64,000 nucleotides of DNA from an uncultured Anaerolinea sp. Lineage in GTDB: Bacteria; Chloroflexota; Anaerolineae; Anaerolineales; UBA4823. The notes beneath the pieces were generated by a model. That model was not told where the DNA came from. It ran no database searches and saw only the letters and a list, made by a program, of their open reading frames with translations. Location: NCBI GenBank assembly GCA_964531975.1, contig CAZHFU010000002.1, positions 74,133-138,132 on the forward strand. Reading direction: 5' to 3'. The position numbers and the translations under genes are program-made. Position 1 is the stretch's first letter; every line of letters starts with the position of its first letter. Below, in pieces: positions 35,325-57,893 of the stretch.

Positions 35325-36878
35325 CTAGGGCAGGTTGTAGAAGTCATACACATTGGTCGCGATATTGGAAATCATCGCCGAATCGTTATCCCACATAATT
35401 TGCTCTGGGTGGTAAATGAACACCACCAAAACATAATTCCCACCTGGGGTGTAAATAATGCCGGCGTCTTCGACCGTTTTAATCACCTCGTTTACCGAGG
35501 TCCAACCATGTTTATGGGCAATCCGGGTGCCTTCCGGCAGACCGGCGGTGAGCAGCATAGGGAGCCGGTTTTTAACCAGGTAATCAATCATCTCCTGGCA
35601 GGTTTGCTGATTAAACTTCCCTGGAAACACCGCTGGCAGCGCCCCGCCCCCATTTTGTGCGCATAAATAAATATCCTCCAGCAGCATGCCAATATCGGCG
35701 GGGGTAGTTTGGCTGTATTGATCTGGGTCAGTGTTGATATCGGTGCGCTGATTGGCCGGAGTTTCAATTATCGCCAGCAGCGGCGAACCAAAGGTAAAAT
35801 AGCCCGCCAAAAAGGTGTTATTCAAACCGAGCGCCTTCATATCTTCAGACACTTCCAGCGGAGCGCGGCCCTTGGTCATCACCCGATCCATCAACCAGTC
35901 GGCGGCTTCATTGCCCGATTTGTCAATCATATCTCCCAGGAGCTTAAGCGTCTCCTCATCCACCGATTCAGAGAAACGACGCATCGCCGCCACCATAATC
36001 GGAACTTTAATGATGCTCGAAGCCGTAAAAGCAATATCCGGGGTCACCGGCACTTCTTCCCCCTGCCGGTAAGCAAAGTGAATCTCGTTAGCGGTCTGCA
36101 AATCTTTGAGGAATACGCCCGTCAAACCATCAAAACCAGACGATTGAATGGTCTGCTTGATGATAACTTCTAGATTCTGAAACACGGGTTTACCCGGCTG
36201 CACACTTTGCAGCGGCAAATCGATAGAGCGGTCATCCAACGAATATAAGCCCGCTTCAATCAGCGGCAAAGCCCCGTCAATATTCAGCGCACTGCCAGGT
36301 TTGCCCGGTTCAAAGCTCGCCCCTCCCGGCGCAGGCATCGATGGAATGGCGGGTTGATCGTAGCGCGCCGCAACATCACTCAAAAAAGCCCGCAAACGTG
36401 CTTCCGAATAGGTGGCGTCGATGGGCACTTCGGTTGGGAAGGTGGTGCGGCCCCACAAATAATCCCAAAAGTCTTGCCAGAACTGCTTCTGCGAGCGTTC
36501 CATACGCGCCACAGTCATCATGCTTTCCGTTTTTAATTGGAAATCAATCATGGTGGGGTAGAGCAAGATTTGCGCGTCGTTATAACGCAGCTCAAGCGGG
36601 GTGGAATACATTGCCACAACCCGCTGGGCCGCCTGGGCCGAATTAAGACCGCCTACGGGCACACCCGCCACAGCCAGGCCGGCAGGCAGGTAAGAACGAA
36701 TGCGACTAAAGACCACTAACTGCCAGGCGGTTAGCACAAAAGCGCCAAATAATATTCCTAACGATAAAAATCTGAGTATGGATCCGCGTCTTCTCACGAT
36801 AAACCTCAATCTGAGAAAACAATCATACCATAAATTCAGCCGCCGCATGGCGGCCCGCATTCTCGCAACGCAGGCCAA
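35325..36878 (-). CDS. Membrane-anchored serine hydrolase, class-A beta-lactamase/PBP-like fold
   Basis: The N-terminal TM reads FLSLGILFGAFVLTAWQLVVF. The SxxK motif is in ASSIIKVP, the SxN motif in KSGNEAAD, and the K(T/H)G motif in AHKHGWT. The start is uncertain between TTG 36878 and ATG 36860. Confidence 0.78.
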   Translation of the reverse strand: MACVARMRAAMRRLNLWYDCFLRLRFIVRRRGSILRFLSLGILFGAFVLTAWQLVVFSRIRSYLPAGLAVAGVPVGGLNSAQAAQRVVAMYSTPLELRYNDAQILLYPTMIDFQLKTESMMTVARMERSQKQFWQDFWDYLWGRTTFPTEVPIDATYSEARLRAFLSDVAARYDQPAIPSMPAPGGASFEPGKPGSALNIDGALPLIEAGLYSLDDRSIDLPLQSVQPGKPVFQNLEVIIKQTIQSSGFDGLTGVFLKDLQTANEIHFAYRQGEEVPVTPDIAFTASSIIKVPIMVAAMRRFSESVDEETLKLLGDMIDKSGNEAADWLMDRVMTKGRAPLEVSEDMKALGLNNTFLAGYFTFGSPLLAIIETPANQRTDINTDPDQYSQTTPADIGMLLEDIYLCAQNGGGALPAVFPGKFNQQTCQEMIDYLVKNRLPMLLTAGLPEGTRIAHKHGWTSVNEVIKTVEDAGIIYTPGGNYVLVVFIYHPEQIMWDNDSAMISNIATNVYDFYNLP

Positions 36879-36914: not shown

Positions 36915-39900
36915 CTACCGCGACACCACCATTTTTACCACCTTGCCCTTTTCATTCACGGTCAGGCGGGCGATACACGGGTGCAGGCTGCCGGCGCTGT
37001 CGATCTGACGCCTCAGCGTCACAAGGCTGGGGGCGTTGGCAGCCTGTGTTTCGGCTGCATCCGATCGTCCGTTTTTCTTGTGCTTACCCGGCTTTCCATC
37101 CCTCGCCGCGGCGGAAACCGGGTCAGTCTCCGCCCCGCCACAAATAGGCCGTGCGCCTGTGTAAGTCAGGCGAGCATCCTGCATTCCCGGCAGGTAGCGC
37201 GCCGTCACCCGCTTCACCTCCGCCGCCACTTCGGGTGGCAGGGGCGCGCCTGGCCCGGCCGCCGGCGGGCAATCGTTGACAATCCGCAGCGGCGCTAAGG
37301 GGCGTTCGGTGTAGCGAACGCTCTTCGGCAGCGGGCGGTTCCATTCGAGACTTGCCAATGGGTCTCCATACAAAACGAAAGCGATCAGGGTTTTCTGATC
37401 CTCGCCATCTAAAAAGCCTTGGCGACCGGTCATCTCAACGTTGTAGAGCAGCTTGGCGCGGCGCAGCGCCTCCCCCACTGGCTGCCCCTCTCGCAAACCA
37501 CGCCAAAACAGCTGACCCAGCAAGTCGGCGGCTGCCAACGGAGGTTCCACCGAGCCATACGCCGTGCAGGTGGCCCCCACCACCGCCAGCGCGCCGTTTT
37601 GCAAAAAACGTAAGGCGATGGCGTCATCGGGCGTACGGTTTTCGATTGACAGACCAAAACACGCCTCGCTAAAGATGATCTGCGGACGCTCGTTATGCGC
37701 ATCCACAGTGTCGAGGTCTTGCGGGCGCAACGCCACCGGGTTCTCTGGCGCATCGCGGCCTTCTTGCGGATGGCGATGACCATACCATTCCGCCTTGTTC
37801 ATCACCCCATGCAGATTAAAATAGGCCAGCCGCCCCTGCATCGGCGGGGTATGGTTAAGCGGACCATCTGTCTGCCCCTCTCCCACCCCCAACGGAGGCG
37901 AAACTAAAAGGCGCTGCTTCTCCGGCATCTCCGCGTAGACCAATTCGGCGGAGCGCTTCCAGATCGCCGCCGAGTAACCCAATGCGTGCGGGCCGCGCCG
38001 CTGCGCACCACGCCGCCGCCAGGCCTGCTTAAGCCAGGCCGCCAGACGCAGCCTCCACCCCTGTGGGCGGGTCGGGCGAGCGTGGCTTAACCGGATGCGC
38101 TCCAAGCTCTCTACCAGCAAATGAGGATCTTTACCCGCTCCGCCTGGCAGCCGCCCCACCGGCCATTCCGGCGAAAAATAGTTTTCATCATTGGCGGCAT
38201 ATGGGTTATCCGAGGCCACGTCCACATCCAGGTCATCGGTGGGGTTAGGCAGATGATGAAACGGCACAATCTCCGGACCGCCCACAATCAACAGCGCCCC
38301 CAGGCGTTCCCCATGCCCACCCAGCGCCAGGTCGAGGTCGCGCAAAAACAATTTGATATCCCACGGATCGCCAGAGCGCACCGGCGTCAGCCCCAGAGGC
38401 CGTAAAGATTGGGCGTCGTCGGCCAACACCAGTCGCGCCCCCCAGCGCGGCAGGCAGGCCACAGCTTGCACCAACCCCGCCATGGCGCTCTCCACCTTTG
38501 CCGCCTCCTCACCGTACACCTCCACAAGTTTGCCGTGCAGCGAAAAGACCACGTAAATCGGATACCGGCCATCCATATCGCCAATCGGCAGCTGCTTAAA
38601 CTTACGCGCCAGCCGGTTGATTTCCGCCGCGGCTGCCCGCAAATCGGGGTCTGCCGGTTTCGGCGGCAGCCCTTTGGGCGGCGCGATCCGGCGCGCAGGC
38701 GGGGGGAACCCCTCCCCCTGGTGAGCGTCATTTGCAGATGGGCCAGGCAGACCAGCCACATCGGCCTTAGACTGGTGGGAGGCAGCCGCCAAGCGCCCCG
38801 GGGCAGAGCCGGCGTGGGCTGGTTGAGCGCTGCCCGCAGACGAAGCGGGCGTTATGCCGCCTCCGCCGGTAGGAGCACAGTCCGGCGCTCCACCAGGTAT
38901 TTTACCGGCTTCAGGCTGCGGCGGGGTGCTGCTCCAGATGCGCCGGCCCCGCGCGCCAACTTGCGTTGCGCCGTCGAGCAAGCCCGGCGCAAGCCCTGGC
39001 GCTATCTCTACAAGCTCATCACCCTTAAGCGGCTCCGTCATCGTCGGAGCGGGGCGGGGAGCGCGAGGGAGAGCGGCAGGTTGAGTGGCCCAGTCGCCTG
39101 GCATACCACCCCCACCGGCGGGCGGCGTGGGCTGTTCGATGGGCGAACGCGCACCGAGGCCAGCCGCCTGCGCATCTTCTCGCCCTGGGGCGGCCCCGGC
39201 CGGCGGCGCAGGATGGTCGAGCGCCGCAGCCTGAACCGGCGCTTCCGTTGCCGCCGCGTCAAATGTCCTGCCCGCCTCCAGGCGGTTCCATCCTAACACT
39301 GCCGCCACAGCCGCCGGCGGCATGGCAGGCAGCCCCAGGCTCACCTCATCCGACCACAGAGCCGTGTAGGGGTGCACACAGCCCCACAAGCGGTGCGCAA
39401 CCTGTGCCCCCAGGTCGCGCACCGCGGCCTGGTGCAGCAGCGCTACCCCCTCATCCGACTGCTCGCCTTCAGCCAGCCAACGCCCCAACCACAGCATCAC
39501 CGGCAGGCAGTCCGGCCAGCGGTGGTGATATTTAGCCGCCACTGCAATTTCCGCCGCCATTCCATCCGTATCTTCGCCCAGGGCGGCCCCCTGCAACGCC
39601 AGCCATTGTAAATGCAGCGCCGCGGCCAAAGGCTGCTCGACCTCCGAGCGATAGGCGGCTAAAAACCAGCTGGTGTGCTGAAGAATCTGTTCAATGCGCT
39701 GCTCTTCGCCGGCCGCTTCCACCTGGTCGAGCCGACGGCGCGCCTCGCCCACCAGGCGGCTCCAAGCCGGCATCTCTGCGGCTTCGCCCGTGCCGGTGAG
39801 GGCCGCACGCCAGGCCTGGGCGAAGGGGTCTTCCTGCCCCGTGGCCGCGGCCAGGGCCAACAACCCATCTACCGCACCCACATAGGCCGGGTCGGCGCGC

Positions 39901-40103
39901 AACAGTCCCTGCAGCACCGGCGCAGCTTGCGCAAAGCGTTTCTCGCCCAACAACGCTTTTCCGTAAAGCAGGCTCACCGCCAAATCGCCGGGAAAATGGC
40001 CCAGCCAGTGCTGTGCGGCCTGGCGCACATACCCATAAGCCCCGGCGGTCAACCCGGCTTCCAAAACCCGCAGATATTCTTGGCGATCGAGACGTGTTTT
40101 CAT
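36915..40103 (-). CDS. TPR-like N-terminal domain + P/A/G-rich linker + clan-CD cysteine-peptidase-like domain (C25/gingipain-like)
   Basis: The 1062-aa protein has a helical repeat N-terminus and a ~200-aa low-complexity middle. The C-terminal half contains ALLIVGGPEIVPFHHLP...ASDNPYA, AYFNLHGVMNKAEWYGH (candidate catalytic His-Gly) and IIFSEACFG (candidate catalytic Cys). Its start overlaps the upstream stop (ATGA). Confidence 0.72.
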   Translation of the reverse strand: MKTRLDRQEYLRVLEAGLTAGAYGYVRQAAQHWLGHFPGDLAVSLLYGKALLGEKRFAQAAPVLQGLLRADPAYVGAVDGLLALAAATGQEDPFAQAWRAALTGTGEAAEMPAWSRLVGEARRRLDQVEAAGEEQRIEQILQHTSWFLAAYRSEVEQPLAAALHLQWLALQGAALGEDTDGMAAEIAVAAKYHHRWPDCLPVMLWLGRWLAEGEQSDEGVALLHQAAVRDLGAQVAHRLWGCVHPYTALWSDEVSLGLPAMPPAAVAAVLGWNRLEAGRTFDAAATEAPVQAAALDHPAPPAGAAPGREDAQAAGLGARSPIEQPTPPAGGGGMPGDWATQPAALPRAPRPAPTMTEPLKGDELVEIAPGLAPGLLDGATQVGARGRRIWSSTPPQPEAGKIPGGAPDCAPTGGGGITPASSAGSAQPAHAGSAPGRLAAASHQSKADVAGLPGPSANDAHQGEGFPPPARRIAPPKGLPPKPADPDLRAAAAEINRLARKFKQLPIGDMDGRYPIYVVFSLHGKLVEVYGEEAAKVESAMAGLVQAVACLPRWGARLVLADDAQSLRPLGLTPVRSGDPWDIKLFLRDLDLALGGHGERLGALLIVGGPEIVPFHHLPNPTDDLDVDVASDNPYAANDENYFSPEWPVGRLPGGAGKDPHLLVESLERIRLSHARPTRPQGWRLRLAAWLKQAWRRRGAQRRGPHALGYSAAIWKRSAELVYAEMPEKQRLLVSPPLGVGEGQTDGPLNHTPPMQGRLAYFNLHGVMNKAEWYGHRHPQEGRDAPENPVALRPQDLDTVDAHNERPQIIFSEACFGLSIENRTPDDAIALRFLQNGALAVVGATCTAYGSVEPPLAAADLLGQLFWRGLREGQPVGEALRRAKLLYNVEMTGRQGFLDGEDQKTLIAFVLYGDPLASLEWNRPLPKSVRYTERPLAPLRIVNDCPPAAGPGAPLPPEVAAEVKRVTARYLPGMQDARLTYTGARPICGGAETDPVSAAARDGKPGKHKKNGRSDAAETQAANAPSLVTLRRQIDSAGSLHPCIARLTVNEKGKVVKMVVSR

Positions 40104-43100
40104 AATTTGCTACCATGGACAATAACCAAACCCATCACAGCCCCCAACAAGCGGCGAATGCTTACCTCGTCCGGGGCCAACTGAACCGCCCGGCGCAGCA
40201 TCGCCTCCGCAGCCAGGTAATCTTTACTATCTTTTAGCACCAGCCCGGCCTGGTAATACGGGCGGTAATCCCCCGGAGAAACACTCATCGCCTTTTGAAA
40301 GACCTTTAGCGCCGATTTATACTGCCGCCGTTCCTGGTAGGCGCGACCCAACTCCATCAACATTTCCGGGTTGGATGGGGCCAGGTTAGAGGCTTCACTG
40401 AGGTGTTGAATCGCCTGGTCAAGCTGTCCACTCGCGCGCATCTGCATCCCAATCAAGGCGTGCAGCCCGGCGCGCCGCTCTGGAGTGAGGTTATTATGCT
40501 CATCTTGGAGCGCCTGGCGGGCGGTTTGTACTGCGGCGTCGTTCTCACCCGCCTCCAGAAGCCAGTTTGCCAGATCGGCGGCGATATCCGTGCGCTGGGG
40601 GTTTTGTTCAGCCAAGGCCTGTAAACCAGGCAAGGCGGCTTCCAGCCCCTGGGCGCGGCGCTGCACATTAGCCCGCTCCAGCTGCAGCGTTAAAGGGTCT
40701 GAACTGCTCAGCAGGGCGTGATCCAACACTTTAAGCGCCTCCAACGGTCGGTCCAAAGCCTCCAGGGCCTGGGCGGCCAGGTGCAGCGCCTCGCTGTGTT
40801 CGGGTTGCAATCGCAGCACCGCCTGGGCCTTGCTCAACGCGCCGCGAGGATTATTGCTCTGCATGGCAATCCGCCCGCGCAGCAGCAGCGCATCAGTCGG
40901 CTCGTTTAAGGCGGCAATCGCTTTATCGGCGCTCAAGGCGGCGGCTTCCCACAAGCTGGCGGCTGCCTGCGCCTGGGCGAGAGCTAACCAGCCCGGCCCG
41001 CTTTCCGGTTGTAGATGAACCGCTTGCTCCAGCGCCGTAATAGCGCGCGCAATTTGACCCTTCTCAATGTAGATTCGTCCCATCCCCAAGTGATTTTGCG
41101 CCTCTTGAGGATCGAGGGCGACGGCTTGCTGCAGATGCTGCATGGCCTTCGCATGGTCGGGCAGTCCTATAGCCTGCTGCTTGCTCTGATAAAGCTGGGC
41201 GGCCAGGCTTTGCCAGCGCGGCTCATCCGGCCAAATTGCCAGGGCCTGCCCAATCGCCGTCAGCGCCGCCTCCATCGCCTGGCAGGCCAACGCTAAGCGG
41301 GCTGTCAAGAAATGCAGCATGGCAATATTGGGCCAATCTGGGGCGGCGTTTTCCACGCAGCTACGGGCGTCGGTCAAGGCCTGGCGAGGATCGGGCTGGG
41401 CAAGCGCTTTTTGCACGCCCACCAGGGCATGGGCGCGCACATCGCGGCCATCAGCGGCGGGCGTCCAGGCAATTTGCAAACACTGCAGCGCCAACGCCGG
41501 CCGCCCTGCGCCGCGATAGGCCGCCATCAAGGCGGCCAGCGCCGCCGAATCTGGCGTCGTCGCCCGCAATAACCCCTCCAAAACCCCGGCCGTTGACACC
41601 GACGGCGTAAAAGCCGCCCGCCCACGCCCCATCCATAGCGCCAAAGTTTGCCGACAGGCATCGGTGAGTTGCGTAACCGCGGGGGTTTCCTGATACACAG
41701 CCGGCATCCCCAACAAACCCGCCGCCTGCCCAAAGGCGTTTTCCATCTCCTGGCGCTGCGCTTCGCTAATCGCCGCCGCCCCAGGAGCGTGACGAGTGAC
41801 ATCCACATCCTGGCACAGGCGTTGGGCCTCAGCCTTGAGGGTTAATAGCTGGGCGCGCTTGAAATACGCCAGTGGGGTTTCGGGGATCATTTCAATCAGC
41901 CGATCCACCACCGACAGGGCGTCATCGAACATGCGGCTCTCGATAAGCGCCTGCGCCACCCCCAAGAATGAAGCGATGTAATCCGCTTTGGTAGATGGGG
42001 GGACGGTAGGCGTCTGTTCCAGGCGCATGCGTGTAATCGCGTTGCGGGCCGCGCGACAGCGGCGATCGCGCTCATCAAGATCGATCACGCGGTTACGCAA
42101 GCGCGCTTCTGCAGCATGCGTGCGCGGATGGGTGTTATCCAACGCCCGCAGTTCAGCAACGGCTTCGGCGGCCAGCGCATCATCCCCCACATCCAAAGCT
42201 AACTCAGCCCGGCGCGCCACGTGTTGAAAATCGTGATAAGCCGGCGAATCAGCCGGCGCGCCGGACAGCAGTTGTTCCAGAGCCAGGCGCGGGCGCAAAG
42301 TGTCTGCGGCCAGGTCTGCGGCCAACAGATGCAGCGAGCTGCGCAGAGCCGGGTCGCTGTGGGGGACGAGATGTTCAACGCCGCGCATCGCTTGCTCAAA
42401 CGCTTCGGGCAAACGCGCCGACTGGCGCAGCGTATCGGCCAGGCGGTAGCGCAGCCGTGGATCGTGCGGCGCACGGCCAGCCGCTTCGCTCAGGCTGTCC
42501 AGAGCGTCTTGACGGCGACCGGCAGCCTGCAACAAGTCGGCCTTGCGAACATGCAGCGCAGCCTGTTCATCGTCAACCCCCAGCGCCTGGTCGATGGCCT
42601 GCAAGGCGGCGGCTGCATCTCCGGCCATCTCGTGGGCCAGGGAAAGCTGGGCGAGCAGTTGCGCCCGCGCCGCCGGTTGAGTGGCTTCGGCCTCTGGAGC
42701 ACGGCTTGCCAGGGCCTGGTAGAGGCGCACCGCCGCGGGGCCTTCTCCGCATTGCAAGGCTGCCTCCGCGCCCTTCTTTAGCGTCTCCCCGGAAAGCTGC
42801 TCCACTGGCAAATCTGCGGAAGCCAGCCGCCGGAAAGATTGCGTGGCGCGGGTCAAATCGCCGGCCTCCAGGTGGGAAAGCCCCAGGCGAAGCAGCAAAT
42901 CGCCGCGTTTGGGTGCATATCGCCCCGCCTGGGTGAGCGCCTGTTGCAGGGTGCGCTGCACCGCGTCCAGGTGAACGCCGGGCACAGCGCGCAAACGGTC
43001 GGCGTGATCCGCCAACCAAACCAGGTTCTCGACATTTTCAGGCTGTAAGCGTAAGTTTTCCTGGGCGGCTTGCAGCGATTCAGGAGCCAGGCCACACGCC

Positions 43101-45691
43101 AGGTAGGCCTCCGCCAGGCTGCGGTGCAGATCGGCATTATCAGGCTGCGCCTGAACCGCATCTTTGAGGGCGGCGGCGGCCATTTCGGGCTGATCGAGGC
43201 CCAGGGCGGCCTTACCAAGCCCCGTCGCCAGGCGTATGCGCAAGCCGGCCGCCTGGTTAGCGGGTTCATCTAAAGCCTGCCGAAACGAGTGCATGGCTTT
43301 ACTGGTTTCACCCACGGCTGCGTAGGCTTCGGACAGCAAAACGAGCGCCTCGCCCCGCGTTTCACCGTTCACATTGGCATGATGGGCCTGGGTGAGCCAT
43401 TCCAGGTGCGGCAAAGCCTGCCGCGCCGCCGGAGCGGTTTGCGGTGAACGCATCAGCGCTCGCGCCAGTTCCAGGCGGGGCTGCGCCGCCTCTGGCTGCC
43501 AGGCAACCACCTGCTCGAGCAAGGGCGCGGCCTCATCCAGTCGATCCAGGCCAAGGCGAGTTTGCGCGACGGCATAAGCCAACTCGGCAGCCAGGGCAGC
43601 GGGCAAAGCCTCTTGCGCCATGGGGGCCGCAAAGGCCGGTTCTAACACGGCCTGGGCTTCTTCCAAAAGGCCCATGCGCAGCAAGGTTTGCCCCAGGCGC
43701 AGCGGTGTGCGGCCATTGCAACCCAACTTTGCCGCCGTTCTAAAGCATTGCAGCGCCTGGGGCATAGATCCCTGCCGTTGGTAGGCCTCACCCAAAACCA
43801 GGTGAAATTCGCCCTCTTGCGGCATCGCCTGGATAGCCTGCTGAAGGGTCTTGACTGTCTGCTCCGGCTGATCCAGGTGAACGATGGCCTGCACAAGCCC
43901 ACGCCATAGGTCGGGCTGGTCCGGCGCCAGGCGAGCGGCGTGTTCAAAATGCAGGGCTGCGCCGGCGTCGTCTCCGGCGGCCTGGGCGAGGCGCGCCAAT
44001 GCCTGGTGTGCATCCAGGTCGTTGGGGGCCAACGCCAGCGCCTGGCGGCTTGCCGCCGCCAATGGGCTGCCTTGGCCGGCATGCTGGGCACAGACCATCA
44101 TGGCATGCAGCTCGTCCAGGGTGGGATGAGGGTTCTCGGCCAATGCCTGAGAGCGTTCTTCCAACGCGGCCGCCCACTCATCTTGGGCTTCCAGGGCCTG
44201 CACCATCAAGCCGTGCAGCGCCCGAATCGCATCTTCGTCCGCCGGCTGCTGTAAACCCAGCCCGGCAAGCGCCGTGCATGCGTCACCCAAAGCGGCTTCT
44301 ACTTCGCCCAAGGTAAACGCGGTTTGAGCCGCCTGGCGCAGTAAGATCGGGTCAAGCGGGTAGACCTCCAACCCCAAGCGGGCGGCTCGTAAGCTCTCTT
44401 TCGCTAACCCTTCATCGCTTAACAATTGCACCAGCGCGCGATACTCGTCCAGCGCCAGTTCGCACCCCTGCGCATCTAACACGTGCACGGTTTGAGCAGC
44501 CTGACTGGCGGCCTCTTTATGATTATCTAAGCGCGCTGCCACCTGCGCCCACGCCAGAGTCAGGGTGGGATGATGATCGCCATCGGCCTGGCGGCGTTCC
44601 AAATAAGCGCGGGCGTCCATGGCCCGGTCGGCTTGCAGCAAAGCGCCTACCAGCCCGGCCACGAAGGGGTGTTCATCGGGGGCCATATGGAGGGCCTGCC
44701 TCCAGGCTTCCAGGCTGGTCTCTTGCGCTGTATCGTTCCAATCTTCATCGTGCGGGCCATGCGCCATCGAAACCGCCTGTGCGAACAGCGCCAGCAGATG
44801 GCCGCGCAGACGGCTCATCTCGCGCAGCGATTCGGCCAAGAGCGGCATGGCGGTGTCCAGGTCGGCGGCCAATTGATACGTCTGCGCCAGGCGCAGCGAT
44901 CCCGCCAGGCTATAGAACTGCTCGCCCAGGTCCGCGGAGGCGGTCTCCGGGCGGGGAGCCGCCCACACCGCCGCCTGATCGGCCAAAAACCGCTTCGCCA
45001 GGCGCTGTGATTGTGAGGGGCGGTGCAGCGCCAATTCGCGCAGCACTGCCAGCCCGTGCGCCGGCGGCAGGTCGCCAAGCAGGGCGTTGACCTGTTCGTA
45101 CAGCGCCTCTTCGGGCTGCGGTTGGCACAGCAGCGCATGCACGGCCAACATCGGGCCGGCGCGGCCATCGGTTTGCACCAGGGCGCGCAAGAAGCGACCG
45201 GCGTCGGGCAGCAAGCCGTAAGCAATCGCCGCACAGCACAATCCTTGCGCCCCAACCAGCGGTGCGCTGTGCAGCGCCTCCCGCCAACTAGCGCCAGCGC
45301 GGTAGCTTTCGCGCAAGCGCAGCGCTTGCCAGGCAGCGGCGCGCAGCGTTTCGAGGGCGTTATCACTCGCAGATCCCCCCTGGCGTGGGCCAGGCTGCTC
45401 AAGTTCAGCTTTAGCGCCGTTCACCCAGGCCTGCCAGGCTTCCGGCAAAGCTTCTAATGGCGCGGCTTGTAATTGCGCCGGCGATAATGGGCTGTCTAGC
45501 GCCAGCAATGCCAGGGCGGCAGGCCCCCAACCGGTGCTGTGCGGCGGACGGCCCAACGCTTGCGCTCCCAGCCGGCTGCCATCCAGCGCCTCCCAAATCA
45601 GCTTATCTTGCCGCAAAGCAGCCAGCGTGTAGACCCATTCTTGCCCCGTCAATCGGGTTTTCAATGCCATAACCAGAGGGGTTTGTTTCAT
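40100..45691 (-). CDS. Giant tetratricopeptide-repeat protein (~1863 aa)
   Basis: The protein is helical A/L/Q-rich throughout, with dozens of TPR-like units (for example AYQERRQYKSALKVFQKAMSVSPGDYRPYYQAGLVL). I prefer the start at ATG 45691 (MKQTPLVMALK), which shares one base with the upstream stop (TGATG). The track start at 45991 would overlap a better membrane-protein ORF. Confidence 0.8.
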   Translation of the reverse strand: MKQTPLVMALKTRLTGQEWVYTLAALRQDKLIWEALDGSRLGAQALGRPPHSTGWGPAALALLALDSPLSPAQLQAAPLEALPEAWQAWVNGAKAELEQPGPRQGGSASDNALETLRAAAWQALRLRESYRAGASWREALHSAPLVGAQGLCCAAIAYGLLPDAGRFLRALVQTDGRAGPMLAVHALLCQPQPEEALYEQVNALLGDLPPAHGLAVLRELALHRPSQSQRLAKRFLADQAAVWAAPRPETASADLGEQFYSLAGSLRLAQTYQLAADLDTAMPLLAESLREMSRLRGHLLALFAQAVSMAHGPHDEDWNDTAQETSLEAWRQALHMAPDEHPFVAGLVGALLQADRAMDARAYLERRQADGDHHPTLTLAWAQVAARLDNHKEAASQAAQTVHVLDAQGCELALDEYRALVQLLSDEGLAKESLRAARLGLEVYPLDPILLRQAAQTAFTLGEVEAALGDACTALAGLGLQQPADEDAIRALHGLMVQALEAQDEWAAALEERSQALAENPHPTLDELHAMMVCAQHAGQGSPLAAASRQALALAPNDLDAHQALARLAQAAGDDAGAALHFEHAARLAPDQPDLWRGLVQAIVHLDQPEQTVKTLQQAIQAMPQEGEFHLVLGEAYQRQGSMPQALQCFRTAAKLGCNGRTPLRLGQTLLRMGLLEEAQAVLEPAFAAPMAQEALPAALAAELAYAVAQTRLGLDRLDEAAPLLEQVVAWQPEAAQPRLELARALMRSPQTAPAARQALPHLEWLTQAHHANVNGETRGEALVLLSEAYAAVGETSKAMHSFRQALDEPANQAAGLRIRLATGLGKAALGLDQPEMAAAALKDAVQAQPDNADLHRSLAEAYLACGLAPESLQAAQENLRLQPENVENLVWLADHADRLRAVPGVHLDAVQRTLQQALTQAGRYAPKRGDLLLRLGLSHLEAGDLTRATQSFRRLASADLPVEQLSGETLKKGAEAALQCGEGPAAVRLYQALASRAPEAEATQPAARAQLLAQLSLAHEMAGDAAAALQAIDQALGVDDEQAALHVRKADLLQAAGRRQDALDSLSEAAGRAPHDPRLRYRLADTLRQSARLPEAFEQAMRGVEHLVPHSDPALRSSLHLLAADLAADTLRPRLALEQLLSGAPADSPAYHDFQHVARRAELALDVGDDALAAEAVAELRALDNTHPRTHAAEARLRNRVIDLDERDRRCRAARNAITRMRLEQTPTVPPSTKADYIASFLGVAQALIESRMFDDALSVVDRLIEMIPETPLAYFKRAQLLTLKAEAQRLCQDVDVTRHAPGAAAISEAQRQEMENAFGQAAGLLGMPAVYQETPAVTQLTDACRQTLALWMGRGRAAFTPSVSTAGVLEGLLRATTPDSAALAALMAAYRGAGRPALALQCLQIAWTPAADGRDVRAHALVGVQKALAQPDPRQALTDARSCVENAAPDWPNIAMLHFLTARLALACQAMEAALTAIGQALAIWPDEPRWQSLAAQLYQSKQQAIGLPDHAKAMQHLQQAVALDPQEAQNHLGMGRIYIEKGQIARAITALEQAVHLQPESGPGWLALAQAQAAASLWEAAALSADKAIAALNEPTDALLLRGRIAMQSNNPRGALSKAQAVLRLQPEHSEALHLAAQALEALDRPLEALKVLDHALLSSSDPLTLQLERANVQRRAQGLEAALPGLQALAEQNPQRTDIAADLANWLLEAGENDAAVQTARQALQDEHNNLTPERRAGLHALIGMQMRASGQLDQAIQHLSEASNLAPSNPEMLMELGRAYQERRQYKSALKVFQKAMSVSPGDYRPYYQAGLVLKDSKDYLAAEAMLRRAVQLAPDEVSIRRLLGAVMGLVIVHGSKL

Positions 45692-46020
45692 CACTGCACC
45701 TGAAAGAGTACCATGGCAAAATATACCGAGGCGGCCATCATTAATAGGCCAAAAATGCACAAGGTGATGCCCACACCGCGCTTCGTATTTACCAGCTGGT
45801 TCATCGCATCCACCAGGGTTGAGGCGTTCCCCACAATGCCGGAAAGGTCTTCCACCAGGCCCTTCTGCGCCAGGCGCGCCGTATAGTTCGCCAGGGTTTG
45901 GATATCGGCCCCGGCTGTCCGCAGGGTTAAGACCCAAATCCCTATCATAAATGTGAAAAGCCCGGCCAAAAAGAATCCGCTGTCGAGCCAAACAAATAAA
46001 TTCGCTGCTGTAGGCATCAT
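45691..46020 (-). CDS. Hypothetical two-TM membrane protein (109 aa)
   Basis: The product reads MMPTAANLFVWLDSGFFLAGLFTFMIGIWVL, then a ~50-aa helical loop, then VGITLCIFGLLMMAASVYFAMVLF. A ggagg SD lies 9 nt upstream of ATG 46020. Confidence 0.6.
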   Translation of the reverse strand: MMPTAANLFVWLDSGFFLAGLFTFMIGIWVLTLRTAGADIQTLANYTARLAQKGLVEDLSGIVGNASTLVDAMNQLVNTKRGVGITLCIFGLLMMAASVYFAMVLFQVQ

Positions 46021-46025
46021 GCCTT

Positions 46026-46844
46026 CTACCTCCATAGGGGTGATAAGGTTGGGAACTGGCAGTTTAGCCCGCCGTTGCCGATTATTTCTTGCCAGGTCTG
46101 CTGAAAATAGGTCTGGCTCATATCGGTCACCGCGGTATTTAGCCACAACCCGGCCATTAGATTGGGATCGGCTGCTGCAAAGGATCGCTCCCAATCGCGG
46201 CACAGGCCATCTAGAACTTGCGCCTGGCGTATGCGGGCTTCTCCCGCCGGCGTGACGGTGGTTAAACCCGCCAGGAGCTGATCGGGCATGACAGCCACGC
46301 CGTTTAACGGCGCACCGCCGGTCAGGTGCAGCAAACCGCTAAGCGAAGCGCGATCTAAAATCAAATACTGGTTCCAAAGCAGATTTTTACTATCAAGGGC
46401 GTTGATGAAGGCCGGGTCGGCCTGACTGCGTGGCGACCATCGAAAGCCGGCGTCCAGTTCGTCTGGGGTCTGGGCGCTTTGCGCAGAAGGCAGCAGAGGG
46501 AAAAAAGAAACCTCATTATCTTGTTGGCTGCGCACAATGAGCCACAAGCCTTCCAGGCGAGCGCCGTCTTCTAACCGCTCTACCCAGCCTAAAACAATAT
46601 TTTCCTGTTCATTGTTACCAAAAAACGCCGCGGGCGTGCCCACCACCGGCGCAGCAGGCGGGGGATTGGAGGGGTTGGGGGAGTGGGAAGCGGTTATGGT
46701 AAGAATGCCAAAAAGGATCACCACCGCGCTGAGCACAACGACAATCGGCCCACTAGAGGTTGTGCGGATATATTGGATGGCATCATCGAGCGCCACCCAA
46801 AGGGCAATCTCAAAGCGATTTAAAATAGTGTTGATTGTCACCAT
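46026..46844 (-). CDS. Hypothetical membrane-anchored protein (272 aa, one TM, extracytoplasmic domain)
   Basis: The TM segment reads PIVVVLSAVVILFGILTITA and is followed by a P-rich segment and a globular domain. I recognise no family with confidence. Confidence 0.6.
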   Translation of the reverse strand: MVTINTILNRFEIALWVALDDAIQYIRTTSSGPIVVVLSAVVILFGILTITASHSPNPSNPPPAAPVVGTPAAFFGNNEQENIVLGWVERLEDGARLEGLWLIVRSQQDNEVSFFPLLPSAQSAQTPDELDAGFRWSPRSQADPAFINALDSKNLLWNQYLILDRASLSGLLHLTGGAPLNGVAVMPDQLLAGLTTVTPAGEARIRQAQVLDGLCRDWERSFAAADPNLMAGLWLNTAVTDMSQTYFQQTWQEIIGNGGLNCQFPTLSPLWR

Positions 46845-47126: not shown

Positions 47127-48464
47127 TCACCGCCGGCGTATATAAGTGGGGATGTTCAGGTCGGAGCGAGACGGCGAGTTAGCGCCCTGCAGGCCATGCG
47201 CGCCGCCCGCCAGCGCGTCCGGCGCAGTCACAGCCACCGCCGGTGAAGCCACTTGCACATCCACCGGCGCTTCTACCTGCGAGCGCGGCGACTGCAAAGC
47301 CGAGACGCCGTGCGATGAACCGGCGGGCGCATCCACCGGCGACCCCGCCCGCCCTTCCAGTCGCCCCGGCAGGCGCGCCGCCGCCGCGCCGCCAGCAGCA
47401 TCGCGCTCCCCGCCCGGCGAGGCCTTCGCCGGTTTGACCGCGAACAGCGCGTCGCTCAGGCTTGGCTTCCCCAAGCCGGTCACTAACAAAATCACCTGGG
47501 CGCGGTCTTCCATGCGTTCGTCGTTGGTTAGCCCAAAGAACAATTCCACCTCGTCTCCGGTGAGTTCTTGCAATCCGCTAAGGGCTTCCTGCACCTCAAA
47601 CAGGGCCAGGTCGCTCCCGCCGGTGAAGTTGACGATGATCCCGCCCGCGCCGCTCAAGTCCACCCGATCCAACATGGGGTGATTCAAGGCCTGCTGCACG
47701 GCCTGGATGGTCTTATTCTCACCCTGGCCTTGCCCAATCGCCATCAGCGCCCCGCCGCCCATTAACAGGATGCGCCGGATGTGGGCGAAGTCGATATTAA
47801 TCAGGCCGGTCTCGGCGATCAACTCGGTGATGCCCTGAACCGCCTGGCGCAGCGCGTCGTCGGCCAACTGGAAGGCCAGCTGCAAAGGCAGGGCGGACGA
47901 GGCATCGGTGTTAAGGCGGTCGTTAGAGATCGTCACCACGGTATGCGCATGACGGCGCAAATTCGCCAGCCCCTCATCGGCGGTGTGCTTGCGGTGGGCC
48001 ATCTCAAATTCGAAAGGCGTGGTAACAACGCCAACCACAACCGCGCCGAGCGAGCGGGCGATTTCAGCGGCCACTGGAATGGCGCCGGTTCCGCTGCCGC
48101 CGCCCATACCGGCGGTGAGAAAGACGATATCAGCGCCACTCAGAGCGGCTTTGATCGCTTCCCGGCTTTCTTCAGCCGCGGCCCGACCGCGCTGGGGGTT
48201 GCCGCCGGCCCCATGCCCCCCAGTAACCTTTGGTCCCAATAAAATGCGTGTGGGGGCCGAGTTAAGTTTAAGCGCCTGAATATCGGTATTGGCCGCGATG
48301 AACTCCACGCCGCCCATTTGCAGCGCCATCATCCGTTCCACTGCATTGCAGCCGCCCCCGCCCAGGCCTAACACTTTCATCACGGGCCGCAGGGGCTGCC
48401 CGGCTTCGCAAGGCACGGAAGATGAACAAGATTTGACAGGCTCAGGGCTAGAAATAGAATTCAT
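47127..48464 (-). CDS. ftsZ: Cell division protein FtsZ (divergent signature motifs, long P/A linker)
   Basis: The sequence reads KVLGLGGGGCNAVERMM...GVEFIAANTDIQAL...GHGAGGNPQRGRAAAEES...GADIVFLTAGMGGGSGTGAIPVAAEIA...VVTTPFEFE. The C-terminal peptide is DLNIPTYIRRR. An aggagag SD precedes ATG 48464. Confidence 0.92.
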   Translation of the reverse strand: MNSISSPEPVKSCSSSVPCEAGQPLRPVMKVLGLGGGGCNAVERMMALQMGGVEFIAANTDIQALKLNSAPTRILLGPKVTGGHGAGGNPQRGRAAAEESREAIKAALSGADIVFLTAGMGGGSGTGAIPVAAEIARSLGAVVVGVVTTPFEFEMAHRKHTADEGLANLRRHAHTVVTISNDRLNTDASSALPLQLAFQLADDALRQAVQGITELIAETGLINIDFAHIRRILLMGGGALMAIGQGQGENKTIQAVQQALNHPMLDRVDLSGAGGIIVNFTGGSDLALFEVQEALSGLQELTGDEVELFFGLTNDERMEDRAQVILLVTGLGKPSLSDALFAVKPAKASPGGERDAAGGAAAARLPGRLEGRAGSPVDAPAGSSHGVSALQSPRSQVEAPVDVQVASPAVAVTAPDALAGGAHGLQGANSPSRSDLNIPTYIRRR

Positions 48465-50184: not shown

Positions 50185-50363
50185 AAGTCGCTCCTCGCTG
50201 CATACCTGTGTGCAAGAAATCTGCCAAACCTGGGAAAGGCGTTAATTTTCCTCCTACCTCGCGCCAACGCAATTCATACACCCCGACGGTAGAATAGCGG
50301 TGAATTAACGGTACAATAGACCTGTGGACGCCCCTCCAGGTATAAACAGTATGGAGAATAGTA

Positions 50364-55989: not shown

Positions 55990-56066
55990 AATATCTCCTC
56001 TTAGCTGCTCTGCGGAGAGGACGGCGAAAACGCCGCCCTGCTCCCAATCAAGCGCGCCGGTATGAT

Positions 56067-57839: not shown

Positions 57840-57855
57840 AACTCTCCTCCTATAG

Positions 57856-57893
57856 AAAAAAATCGCCCTACGCAAGCTGCTGCGTCGGGCGAT
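57856..57893 (-). promoter_or_regulatory. Intrinsic terminator hairpin + U7 tract inside the aspS 5' leader (attenuator)
   Basis: On the minus-strand RNA, the hairpin aucgcccgacgcag-cagc-uugcguagggcgau is followed by seven U, which end 5 nt before the aggaggag SD. An upstream segment cugcgucgggcg (57951-57940) is perfectly complementary to the 5' arm. Confidence 0.6.

Follow-up and report, generated by a model that had tools for sequence, protein, structure and literature searches.

Gingipains and other clan CD peptidases

The gingipains RgpB and Kgp of Porphyromonas gingivalis are cysteine peptidases of MEROPS family C25, and provide the closest described counterparts of the protein considered here. 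In clan CD, which includes the C25 gingipains, caspases and CHAT proteins, the catalytic dyad is carried on a caspase-like fold in the order His-Gly ... Ala-Cys. The C25 peptidases characterized so far come from Bacteroidota, where they are secreted and serve either virulence or a secretion system, and the gingipains possess a signal peptide, a cleavable prodomain, an Ig-like domain and the C-terminal domain of the type IX secretion system (T9SS). That a gingipain-fold enzyme can also take part in cell-biological processing, rather than in nutrition or virulence, is illustrated by PorU, the C25-like sortase of type IX secretion, which is an outer-membrane-associated T9SS component in Bacteroidota.

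Several clan CD peptidases act inside the cell. Separase (MEROPS C50) acts within the cell and is linked to the division cycle; in a single polypeptide it carries a very large helical-repeat scaffold together with pseudo-protease and active protease domains, the protease having two caspase-like subdomains. The Csx29 TPR-CHAT and SAVED-CHAT proteins are likewise intracellular regulated proteases, with TPRs placed N-terminal to a clan CD protease. The structural reference for family C25 is RgpB, in which a central sheet of about 10 strands is divided between an N-terminal subdomain of 4 strands and a caspase-like C-terminal subdomain of 6 (PMC4357240). In RgpB, Asp163 in the S1 pocket, on helix H-alpha-1, gives Arg/Lys specificity, and the gingipain-type dyad is printed as His221/Cys244 in the numbering of a clan CD review.

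Here we describe a gingipain-type protein encoded by an Anaerolineae genome within a three-gene cassette, for which no description was found in the literature searched. The window, that is the whole 64-kb stretch of DNA that was analysed, comes from an uncultured Anaerolinea sp. Anaerolineae are a very abundant and little-studied lineage of filamentous bacteria, and to our knowledge the division machinery of Chloroflexota is largely uncharacterized.

Organization and conservation of the cassette

ORF A (40100..45691, minus strand) encodes a helical-repeat (TPR) protein of 1,863 aa, counted from the ATG at 45691 in a reading frame that spans 40100..45991, and ORF B (36915..40103, minus strand) encodes a protein of 1,062 aa. 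These are the two largest ORFs of the window, the third-largest being 901 aa, and they overlap as an earlier note on this DNA had described, the ORF A stop and the ORF B start sharing ATGA at 40100-40103. The coupling of the two genes proposed in that note goes beyond chance, because the same pair of TPR and C25 genes recurs in about 75 related loci, 27 of which have a 4-base stop/start overlap of the kind seen in the window; the junction is at most 14 nt in most loci, and a giant TPR gene lies directly 5′ of the C25 gene in essentially all loci with sufficient flank. The pair belongs to a larger unit, a third gene having been missed. This gene, S109 (45691..46020, minus strand), encodes 109 aa with two membrane helices joined to a conserved loop of ~50 residues; 63 of 83 loci have it directly 5′ of the giant TPR gene, and the conserved unit thus comprises three genes. 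The gap between S109 and the TPR gene is usually < 80 nt, with a 4-nt overlap in 8 loci. In the window, S109 is preceded by a GGAGG Shine-Dalgarno sequence and its stop codon overlaps the ORF A ATG (TGATG), coupling the two genes translationally. S109, ORF A and ORF B therefore constitute a cassette conserved across Anaerolineae, its synteny reinforced by overlapping or near-abutting stop and start codons.

These counts derive from a search in which the catalytic domain of ORF B alone served as query and yielded 647 homologue matches; full-length ORF B yielded only 7, since the list of candidates filled up with TPR and low-complexity words. The cassette has at least 585 matches in a one-genome-per-species collection. 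The best 80 loci of these were sampled, and all 80 belong to Chloroflexota and, where classified, to named Anaerolineae or their orders. Neighbourhood counts were taken over 83 related Chloroflexota (Anaerolineae) loci. One locus (L003), a truncated second copy amid gene fragments, was uninformative as to context.

The S109 family is narrow: among 1.84 billion proteins only 94 representatives were found, nearly all of ~100-115 aa, and the weakest matches include four multi-hundred-residue proteins (E 4.5e-6 to 1.6e-4) of a multi-stretch, repeat type. The S109 homologues were aligned (alignment A3), the loop carries the motif LAQKG..GLVGNAS..LVRT, and neither Pfam nor NCBIfam gave a match to S109. 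The protein is probably a small membrane hairpin with its conserved loop facing the cytoplasm; this topology, and a contact between S109 and the TPR protein, are guesses from the positive-inside rule and from synteny.

ORF A is matched by 23 TPR-type Pfam families over residues ~500 to 1850, led by TPR_19 (E 1.8e-44) and TPR_14 (E 3e-34) with 21 others, and these several profile matches place it among TPR proteins. Its earlier description as 'all-TPR' is accurate for this region and only approximate for the whole, because the first ~500 residues match no TPR model; no Pfam profile of any kind rose above threshold from residue 1 to ~450-500. ORF A is colinear from end to end with 48 orthologues of 1,700-2,100 aa, and conservation is highest in the final ~120 residues.

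Composition and AF2 models bear out the layout proposed for ORF B, in which a helical-repeat N-terminus is followed by a P/A/G-rich disordered region and a C-terminal domain. Residues 1-272 (39288..40103, minus strand) are modelled, at a pLDDT of ~90, as an N-terminal TPR-like domain in which nearly all of the 14 helices form TPR-like pairs; the TPR_19 match to this segment is weak, and it is counted as TPR on account of its paired helices. The domain is fused to the protease in ~70 loci and is encoded by its own gene in others (L002, L011, L032, L049 and L070). The linker, residues 274-483 (38655..39284, minus strand), is predicted to be disordered (pLDDT ~30), with 42-62% Pro/Ala/Gly across residues ~285-495, and is shorter in most orthologues, whose median ORF is 920 aa as against 1,062 aa here. 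Next come the predicted gingipain-like catalytic domain, residues 514-915 (37359..38564, minus strand), and a conserved C-terminal alpha+beta domain, residues 957-1062 (36918..37235, minus strand), with the consensus YLPGMxDA ... ARLTLDxxGKxVKLVVSR. The C-terminal domain contains helices and is not Ig-like, and in most members it bears a CxGxxHxCP motif, whose His and second Cys are missing from the window protein. Owing to the linker, pTM is low (0.38) for the AF2 model of the entire protein, which is uninformative as to how the TPR domain docks onto the protease.

Fold, family and putative catalytic dyad of ORF B

The AF2 model of the catalytic domain (pLDDT 82.7, pTM 0.80) has four core strands in its N-terminal subdomain (residues 514-521, 555-560, 599-607 and 649-652) and six in its caspase-like subdomain (707-712, 729-735, 759-763, 809-812, 840-844 and 909-913), and these ten strands agree with the subdomain layout of RgpB, as expected of a gingipain-type domain. 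The comparison of folds called for in the earlier note came out in favour of a caspase- or gingipain-like enzyme: the best Foldseek matches in the PDB are Kgp (6i9a/4rbm) and RgpB (1cvr/4ief), with E values of 1.5e-11 to 1.5e-10, ~440 aligned columns and target-normalised TM-scores of 0.52-0.56, followed by SAVED-CHAT, separase and Csx29 TPR-CHAT.

The domain also matches a catalytic family. PF01364 (Peptidase_C25) scores 36.0 bits against ORF B, above the gathering threshold of 23, and 38.4 bits against the domain alone, the alignment covering profile positions 257-373 of 374 only, which is the Cys-containing half; the same profile matches 39 of 55 family members (best E 6e-18). NCBIfam contains no family for ORF B. 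PDB sequence searches returned nothing relevant, whether the query was the family profile or the Cys-containing half (E<=10), so the link to solved structures is through fold comparison alone.

All four motifs quoted for ORF B in the earlier note are present, LLIVGGPEIVPFHHLP at residue 604, SDNPYA at 631, FNLHG at 762 and FSEAC at 811. The putative catalytic His is His765 of FNLHG (codon 37809..37811, minus strand) and the putative catalytic Cys is Cys815 of FSEAC (codon 37659..37661, minus strand), both codons having been checked. In the model, His765 lies at the C-terminal end of strand 759-763 and Cys815 likewise follows the next strand, 809-812. The two are 50 residues apart, and 47-53 across homologues, as compared with 23 for the gingipain-type His221/Cys244. 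Conservation of the two residues, on which the proposal had been made to depend, is family-wide: alignments A1 and A2 (30 and 55 sequences) show no substitution of H765, G766, E813, A814 or C815, and both motifs are found in 126 of 127 fetched homologues. The His-then-Cys order, the position of both residues at consecutive strand ends and their conservation throughout the family are those of clan CD. On this modelled structure ORF B is confirmed as a putative cysteine protease of the gingipain type (MEROPS C25, clan CD), tethered to a TPR domain and with its dyad intact, and it would be expected to have protease activity. The predicted helix 713-723 (consensus GYTAAxWRxAS), equated with the S1 helix of RgpB by secondary-structure order only, contains no conserved Asp or Glu, and for this reason the specificity of ORF B is not predictable.

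ORF B thus shares with the gingipains the PF01364 profile, a catalytic domain of two subdomains with a 4 + 6-strand core sheet, and a His-Gly/Ala-Cys dyad at consecutive strand ends, at an identity of only ~12-13%. It differs from them in lacking the signal peptide, cleavable prodomain, Ig-like domain and T9SS C-terminal domain, in its TPR fusion and giant TPR partner, in its Chloroflexota host and in its apparently cytoplasmic location.

A predicted sigma-54 promoter and the ftsZ-linked gene array

A sigma-54-type -24/-12 promoter element, TGGCACGTTTTTTGC (48533..48547, minus strand), lies 69 nt upstream of the ftsZ ATG, within the last codons of the upstream gene Y553, and is the sole perfect sigma-54 match in the window. 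Of 23 ftsZ-linked loci, 20 have a site at the same position, no more than 250 nt ahead of ftsZ; of 35 loci lacking ftsZ linkage, 27 have one in the 200 nt preceding S109. The background frequency is 0.014 sites per 200 nt. The possibility that the motif is a mere by-product of the Y553 C-terminal peptide DGTxxAT was rejected, because the synonymous third positions that the motif requires are fixed (GGC in 20/20, GCA in 20/20 and NTT in 18/20). A generic scan for sigma-70 promoters and terminators was uninformative, giving promoter-like sites that barely exceed those of shuffled sequences and terminator-like sites that are fewer than in shuffles; no terminator-like site was found outside coding sequence between ftsZ and ORF A. 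The cassette lies behind a predicted sigma-54 promoter nearly everywhere, located upstream either of S109 (directly) or of ftsZ, and in the window a single predicted promoter would serve a putative operon of ftsZ, X272, S109, ORF A, ORF B and BLA517.

The first gene of this putative operon, ftsZ (47127..48464, minus strand), matches Pfam Tubulin and FtsZ_C and NCBIfam TIGR00065 (344 bits, cut-off 295). Two genes that the earlier note had omitted, X272 and S109, separate it from ORF A. X272 (46026..46844, minus strand) encodes 272 aa and has a single membrane helix near its N-terminus, the hydrophobic segment spanning residues 26-56; in 15 loci the interval from ftsZ to S109 holds a weak homologue of it (22-34% identity), and neither X272 nor Y553 belongs to a Pfam or NCBIfam family. 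The last gene, BLA517 (35325..36878, minus strand), starts 36 nt past ORF B and encodes a membrane-anchored protein of the penicillin-binding/class A beta-lactamase fold (PF13354 Beta-lactamase2, E 9e-22, with weak class A matches; N-terminal membrane segment at residues 31-60), a homologue of which is found directly 3′ of the C25 gene in 29 loci. Both X272 and BLA517 are predicted to be membrane-anchored proteins of an envelope type. Downstream of the cassette the neighbours vary from locus to locus and include alaS, ribosomal protein genes and a CHAP-domain gene.

Proposed function and alternative explanations

We lean, with a good deal of reserve, towards a reading in which S109, ORF A and ORF B form a co-translated module, a membrane-associated, TPR-scaffolded protease made under sigma-54 control with a possible target in division or the envelope. 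ORF A would be a giant cytoplasmic TPR solenoid, and ORF B would combine a second TPR module, a flexible linker and a catalytically competent gingipain-type cysteine endopeptidase. The TPR arrays would dock onto the membrane protein S109 and recruit or gate protein substrates, which would be cleaved at the His765/Cys815 site inside the cell, at the membrane, and the module would be produced only upon activation of the sigma-54 promoter. The process targeted here may be cell division or septal envelope remodelling in filamentous bacteria, which is the most likely candidate because the promoter would also drive ftsZ, X272 and the PBP-like BLA517. Complex formation, membrane tethering and a target in division or the envelope are all inferred.

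The linkage to ftsZ that the earlier note had raised is real and recurrent, and falls short of being general: ftsZ lies within 10 kb of the cassette in 29 of 83 loci and is absent in ~54, where the genes ahead of the cassette are either rpoN and a two-component system or unrelated ones. Since about two thirds of the loci are not beside ftsZ, a division role may be lineage-specific or absent. It is accordingly a real possibility, if a less probable one, that the cassette encodes a sigma-54-regulated intracellular protease complex with no part in division, serving a stress, nutrient or developmental response, and that its place behind ftsZ here is a by-product of sharing a sigma-54 promoter. The variable downstream neighbours fit such a role, as does one clade in which the cassette comes after rpoN and the genes for an NtrC-type activator and a PAS sensor kinase, an order that implies signal-dependent rather than cell-cycle expression. 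Loci L001 and L084-L086 have rpoN, a PAS-HisKA kinase gene and such an activator gene immediately upstream; the kinase-activator pair (scored as a pair, without rpoN) is upstream in 10 more loci, and the window itself encodes neither an NtrC-type activator nor a related kinase. Against this role, adjacency to ftsZ crops up repeatedly in the C25 tree, on several distinct branches and with two different gene orders, and the ftsZ-linked clade has division or envelope genes on both sides of the cassette in a tight, same-strand array.

A narrower version of the favoured division or envelope function, which we regard as doubtful, would make the cassette a bacterial functional analogue of separase, an S109-anchored scaffold whose protease cleaves a component of the divisome or septal envelope when triggered through sigma-54. 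The resemblance, a very large helical-repeat scaffold with a protease of two caspase-like subdomains, would be one of architectural analogy, with homology at the level of the clan only. Foldseek matches to human and yeast separase (E 4e-6 to 2e-3, query-normalised TM-score ~0.29) are weaker than those to gingipains, and no C50 Pfam match at E<=0.1 was found in ORF B, nor any among 55 family members. Separase is a single polypeptide, whereas the scaffold of the cassette would be split between the separate ORF A and the tethered TPR domain, and no securin-like partner is known for the cassette. If true, the analogy would have the cassette govern septation, the separation of neighbouring cells or the fragmentation of filaments in multicellular Anaerolineae, with ftsZ itself transcribed here from the same sigma-54 promoter.

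It is unlikely that the C25 domain acts mainly as a self-processing enzyme or as a transpeptidase or ligase, for instance by cutting its own linker or attaching a partner. Clan CD does include transamidases and sortase-like enzymes, and PorU, GPI transamidase and the ligase activity of legumain are precedents for processing and ligation; the dyad is intact, and the long disordered linker sits where gingipains have their cleavable prodomain. Nothing specific speaks for such an activity, however: no conserved cleavage site is apparent, as the linker varies in both length and sequence. Unlike PorU, the cassette is accompanied by neither T9SS genes nor C-terminal-domain signals.

Export of the protease to the cell exterior, with the P/A/G-rich segment as a wall-spanning spacer, appears very unlikely. 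All characterized C25 enzymes are secreted, Pro-rich low-complexity spacers are frequent in surface proteins, and the neighbouring X272 and BLA517 are extracytoplasmic. Yet a crude hydropathy scan found no hydrophobic N-terminus or membrane segment in ORF A or ORF B, upholding the earlier statement that neither protein has a signal peptide; ~73 ORF B orthologues have no signal peptide or membrane helix, and no N-terminal hydrophobic segment was found in them or in the ORF A orthologues. The NCBIfam models of the T9SS C-terminal domain do not match ORF B, the N-terminus of which is modelled as a folded TPR domain, and its 1,863-aa partner also lacks export signals. These observations fit the cytoplasmic location suggested for the pair. 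ORF B is apparently cytoplasmic, non-classical export still being possible.

It is highly improbable that the cassette is a TPR-caspase effector of phage defence or abortive infection, along the lines of Csx29 TPR-CHAT (Craspase) or SAVED-CHAT. Foldseek does match these proteins (E 1e-6 to 1e-2), and the combination of TPRs with a clan CD protease is that of Craspase. Nevertheless, ORF B belongs to Pfam family C25, CHAT models match only 2 of 55 family members, and these weakly (E ~1e-3), and no CRISPR or CBASS partner genes, nor any other defence genes, occur in the inspected neighbourhoods. PADLOC gave no match for ORF B, S109 or their neighbours and a single TPR-level match for ORF A, on which ground the defence reading was rejected. 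Unlike Craspase-type genes, the ORF B gene is vertically conserved in housekeeping contexts in the sampled Anaerolineae loci; it has at least 585 matches, and the 80 loci examined have conserved surroundings on the chromosome (ftsZ, rpoN) and orthologues that are colinear, the reverse of what is seen in defence genes, whose distribution is patchy and mobile. That the C25-like domain is a non-catalytic scaffold, as its low identity to gingipains and the want of a sequence-level PDB match might suggest, is hardly credible for a family in which the His-Gly and Glu-Ala-Cys motifs are invariant, given that pseudoenzymes typically lose catalytic residues.

Possible implications for regulated proteolysis and septation

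What is new in the cassette is a C25 family that is apparently intracellular, and is fused to and co-translated with a TPR scaffold of more than 2,000 residues. With its fixed three-gene architecture, predicted dedicated sigma-54 control and recurrent placement in an ftsZ operon, the cassette offers a concrete way into regulated proteolysis within bacterial cells that departs from the AAA+ protease paradigm. A sigma-54 promoter in front of ftsZ is in itself an unusual regulatory observation, and the membrane-associated, TPR-scaffolded protease proposed here could bear on the control of septation in Chloroflexota.

The ORF A/ORF B pair

All of the genes discussed here are carried on the minus strand of the window, and an ORF scan confirmed that its two largest ORFs are the giant TPR gene (ORF A) and the C25 gene with an N-terminal TPR domain (ORF B). 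ORF A has its stop end at 40100 and a possible ATG at 45691 that would give a protein of 1,863 aa; the longest possible version of the frame is 1,963 aa. ORF B (36915-40103) encodes 1,062 aa, and the ATGA overlap with ORF A described in the earlier note is present in the sequence at 40100-40103.

The same note had described ORF A as composed of TPR repeats throughout. This is borne out for residues ~500-1850, which are matched by 23 TPR-type Pfam families (TPR_19 with an E-value of 1.8e-44), and is approximate for the protein as a whole, since a profile search matched no model in the first 450 residues. NCBIfam matches are at the generic TPR level only and all fall under the curated cut-offs. 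ORF A is colinear with 48 orthologues of 1,700-2,100 aa, with occupancy of 0.77-1.0 along the whole alignment, and the N-terminal stretch is positionally conserved among them despite the absence of a profile match; the best-conserved part is the last ~120 residues. ORF A is therefore, as judged from this alignment, an orthologous scaffold of fixed length and not a drifting repeat array. In related loci the giant TPR gene is sometimes broken into two or three ORFs.

In a full-length model of ORF B, residues 1-272 are a paired-helix solenoid (pLDDT ~90), residues 274-483 are predicted to be disordered (pLDDT ~30), and residues 957-1062 form a separate conserved alpha+beta domain. The disordered region coincides with the proposed P/A/G-rich linker, residues ~285-495 being 42-62% Pro/Ala/Gly. 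The C-terminal domain of most family members (~residues 940-1000; 36918-37235, minus strand, in the window) carries a CxGxxHxCP motif and an upstream Cys, which could form a metal-binding knuckle; ORF B of the window, like the homologues P0010, P0024 and P0032, keeps only the first Cys of the motif, its His and second Cys being absent.

The peptidase domain of ORF B

The Pfam profile Peptidase_C25 (PF01364), a catalytic family, matches ORF B above threshold (36 bits versus 23), in an alignment limited to residues 803-918 (profile positions 257-373 of 374), and it is matched by 39 of 55 family members, with a best E-value of 6e-18. A homology search with the catalytic region returned 647 homologues; the best 120 all had E-values below 1e-106, and the named proteins among these 120 came from Chloroflexota or Anaerolineae MAGs. 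Automated annotation at NCBI has already placed the label "C25 family cysteine peptidase" on some homologues.

The catalytic domain (residues 491-1062) was modelled with AlphaFold2 from a 55-sequence alignment (pLDDT 82.7, pTM 0.80). The top PDB match of the model in Foldseek was gingipain K (6i9a, 4rbm; E-value 1.5e-11), and gingipain R (1cvr, 4ief) also matched, with an E-value of ~1e-10 and ~440 aligned columns. Target-normalised TM-scores against the gingipains were 0.52-0.56, and the next matches were SAVED-CHAT, separase and the Csx29 TPR-CHAT protein, in keeping with a caspase-like fold. The core of the model has ten strands, arranged as four and then six, which agrees with the N-terminal subdomain and the caspase-like C-terminal subdomain of RgpB (PMC4357240). 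All of the motifs listed in the earlier note were located, namely LLIVGGPEIVPFHHLP at residue 604, SDNPYA at 631, FNLHG at 762 (His765) and FSEAC at 811 (Cys815), with 50 residues between His765 and Cys815. In the model, these two residues are placed at the ends of consecutive strands (759-763 and 809-812), as in the clan CD arrangement. Alignments of 30 and 55 sequences show no variation at His765, Gly766, Glu813, Ala814 or Cys815, and both motifs were found in 126 of 127 fetched homologues, mostly with a His-Cys spacing of 47-53 residues. That the domain is a pseudoenzyme is unlikely, since the dyad is invariant.

Neither ORF A nor ORF B has a hydrophobic N-terminus or membrane segment, in line with the lack of a signal peptide remarked on in the earlier note, and none was found in ~73 orthologous C25 ORFs or ~50 TPR giants. 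This absence of export signals makes a secreted protease unlikely, and the ORF B peptidase is probably cytoplasmic. The earlier identification of ORF B as a TPR-tethered clan CD peptidase of the C25 type thus holds, and none of the three outcomes that the note had named as fatal to it (a fold unlike that of caspases, a variable His or Cys, a match to a non-catalytic family) was observed.

By profile, predicted fold and dyad, ORF B is a divergent member of the C25 family outside the gingipains proper, whose signal peptide, prodomain, Ig-like domain and T9SS C-terminal domain are all missing from it. The S1 Asp also seems to be missing: the helix that bears Asp163 in the S1 pocket of RgpB has a putative counterpart in ORF B, assigned by the order of secondary-structure elements, without a conserved acidic residue. 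ORF B had no match of any kind in NCBIfam, the T9SS C-terminal domain included, and no sequence-level match in the PDB was found. It also falls outside the membership criteria of both C50 and CHAT. The architecture of the cassette formed by ORF A, ORF B and the small membrane protein gene S109 is like that of separase, an intracellular protein with a giant helical scaffold and a two-subdomain clan CD protease, and like that of Csx29 TPR-CHAT.

S109 and conservation of the cassette

The earlier note had treated ORF A and ORF B as a pair. Their coupling stands, and the conserved unit also includes a third gene, S109 (45691-46020, minus strand), a 109-aa ORF between X272 (46026-46844, minus strand) and ORF A. 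S109 has a GGAGG Shine-Dalgarno sequence ahead of its start, and its stop overlaps the ORF A start in TGATG. By tblastn, 63 of 83 related loci have S109 immediately before the giant TPR gene, which is nearly every locus with sufficient upstream sequence, irrespective of other neighbours; the gap is usually <80 nt, with a 4-nt overlap in eight loci. HMMER detected only 94 relatives among 1.84 billion representative proteins, nearly all of ~100-115 aa, the four multi-hundred-residue matches at the weakest end being of a multi-stretch, repeat type. S109 has two hydrophobic helices on either side of a ~50-residue loop, and conservation peaks in the loop (LAQKG..GLVGNAS..LVRT), which has basic residues on both sides. 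By the positive-inside rule, these basic flanks should place the loop on the cytoplasmic side, with the TPR proteins.

In the clade where the cassette stands behind an NtrC-type activator, the short S109 5' leader contains an 8-bp inverted repeat (CCTCCTGA...TCAGGAGG; L001, 3658-3715; also L043, L054, L057, L062, L068 and L079). The hairpin (~-11 to -16 kcal/mol) would sequester the Shine-Dalgarno sequence and is a possible translational control element; such a leader is missing from S109 of the window.

A scan of one genome per species gave at least 585 matches, and the best 80 loci were all from Chloroflexota, the named ones being Anaerolineae, Anaerolineales or similar. The C25 gene is preceded by a giant TPR gene in essentially all loci with flanking sequence, with a -4 overlap at the junction in 27 of 75 loci and a distance of ≤14 nt in most. 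In ~70 loci ORF B has its N-terminal TPR domain fused to it, and in L002, L011, L032, L049 and L070 the domain is encoded by a gene of its own; this alternation between split and fused forms supports the cassette as a functional unit. A second, shortened C25 copy of 415 aa (L003, 10001-11247; CP070764.1, at 2.15 Mb) lies on the same complete Chloroflexota MAG chromosome as L047 (3.96 Mb); it is probably a decaying duplicate, as it has no TPR or S109 partners and sits among short gene fragments.

Linkage to ftsZ

The ftsZ gene of the window is a genuine orthologue (TIGR00065, 344 bits) and heads a same-strand array that continues with X272, S109, ORF A, ORF B and BLA517 (35325-36878, minus strand), the last gene of the putative operon. 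No terminator-like sites were found in the intergenic gaps of this array, and the gene after BLA517 is convergent. The proposed association of the pair with ftsZ is borne out by this array and by its recurrence, and does not extend to about two thirds of the loci, where ftsZ is not nearby. The cassette lies within 10 kb of ftsZ in 29 of 83 loci, the linked arrangement occurs on both sides of the midpoint root of a neighbour-joining tree of the C25 domain, and in L080 the order differs, with the cassette upstream of a Y553-like gene and ftsZ; the link is thus recurrent, not universal. Of the 83 loci, 29 have a BLA517 homologue directly behind the C25 gene.

BLA517 has one N-terminal membrane helix, ~250 residues without assignment and a class A beta-lactamase/PBP-like domain. 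The motifs SxxK (SIIK), SGN and KHG, recognized by eye, suggest that it encodes a membrane-anchored enzyme of the peptidoglycan DD-peptidase type and is not a resistance gene. No family could be detected for X272, a bitopic membrane protein that shows weak conservation (22-34% identity) in 15 ftsZ-linked loci, where it stands between ftsZ and S109; its extracytoplasmic part has a vague by-eye likeness to LytR-CpsA-Psr domains, without profile support. The gene before ftsZ, Y553 (48523-50184, minus strand), was matched by neither Pfam nor NCBIfam, and its product includes a Pro/Ala-rich spacer. The C-terminal ~80 residues form a strongly conserved domain (≤69% identity) that ends in ..GCxVERI..DGTxxAT, a motif that by eye resembles cell-wall-binding repeat 2 domains, and that is matched in part by a separate 108-aa gene in L002. 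Elsewhere in the window are two adjoining class II aminoacyl-tRNA synthetase genes of the Asp/Lys/Asn type (54646-57875, minus strand; 447 aa, and 602 aa with a GAD domain), and the remaining genes are housekeeping genes (AdoHcy hydrolase, PfkB kinase, aminotransferase, Na+/H+ exchanger and FtsX-like permease).

Putative sigma-54 control

Of 35 loci without the ftsZ link, 27 have a canonical sigma-54 -24/-12 element, scored as TGGCAC-N5-TTGC with at most one mismatch, in the 200 nt before S109; the background rate is 0.014 sites per 200 nt. Eleven of these loci also have, immediately upstream and in the same orientation, genes for a PAS-HisKA kinase and an NtrC-type sigma-54 activator. The rpoN gene precedes the kinase, the regulator and the S109-TPR-C25 genes on the same strand in L001 (1-3637), L084 (1-3785) and L085 (1-3426), and in L086 (1-2797), where the flank begins within the kinase gene, kinase and regulator lie upstream of the cassette. 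The cassette may be a principal sigma-54 target in these genomes.

Of 23 ftsZ-linked loci, 20 have the element in the 250 nt before ftsZ. The only perfect TGGCAC-N5-TTGC in the 64 kb of the window is at 48533-48547 (minus strand), 69 nt ahead of the ATG of ftsZ and embedded in the last codons of Y553. The synonymous third positions required by the motif are fixed among the 20 loci (GGC in 20/20, GCA in 20/20, NTT in 18/20), which points to selection on the DNA and not on the peptide alone, and ftsZ thus appears to have a sigma-54 promoter. A second sigma-54-like site with one mismatch (TGGCAGATTTCTTGC; 50212-50226, minus strand) lies ~30 nt ahead of Y553, which starts at 50184, and the window contains no gene for an NtrC-type activator.

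Possible function of the cassette

Apart from the C25 label on some homologues, searches of the full-text literature turned up no account of the cassette or S109, nor of its sigma-54 control or the ftsZ linkage. The main alternative to a function in division is that the cassette has a role unrelated to it, and this is favored by the absence of ftsZ from two thirds of the loci and by the clade with a dedicated sensor kinase and activator. For the C25 domain, a transpeptidase or self-processing role is conceivable. A role in defence is unlikely, as PADLOC gave no defence-system match beyond one TPR-level match of ORF A, and in the Chloroflexota (Anaerolineae) loci examined the cassette is a conserved chromosomal feature.

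We consider it probable that ORF B is an active intracellular C25-type protease working with its TPR partner. S109 would anchor or nucleate the giant TPR scaffold at the inner membrane face, a tethering to which we give an even chance. The TPR domain of ORF B would dock on the ORF A scaffold, and the flexible linker would give the C25 domain access to substrates recruited via the TPR arrays. In the lineage of the window, expression of the cassette would be coupled to that of ftsZ and two extracytoplasmic envelope proteins, a coupling that tentatively suggests division or septal envelope remodelling as the process in which the protease may act.
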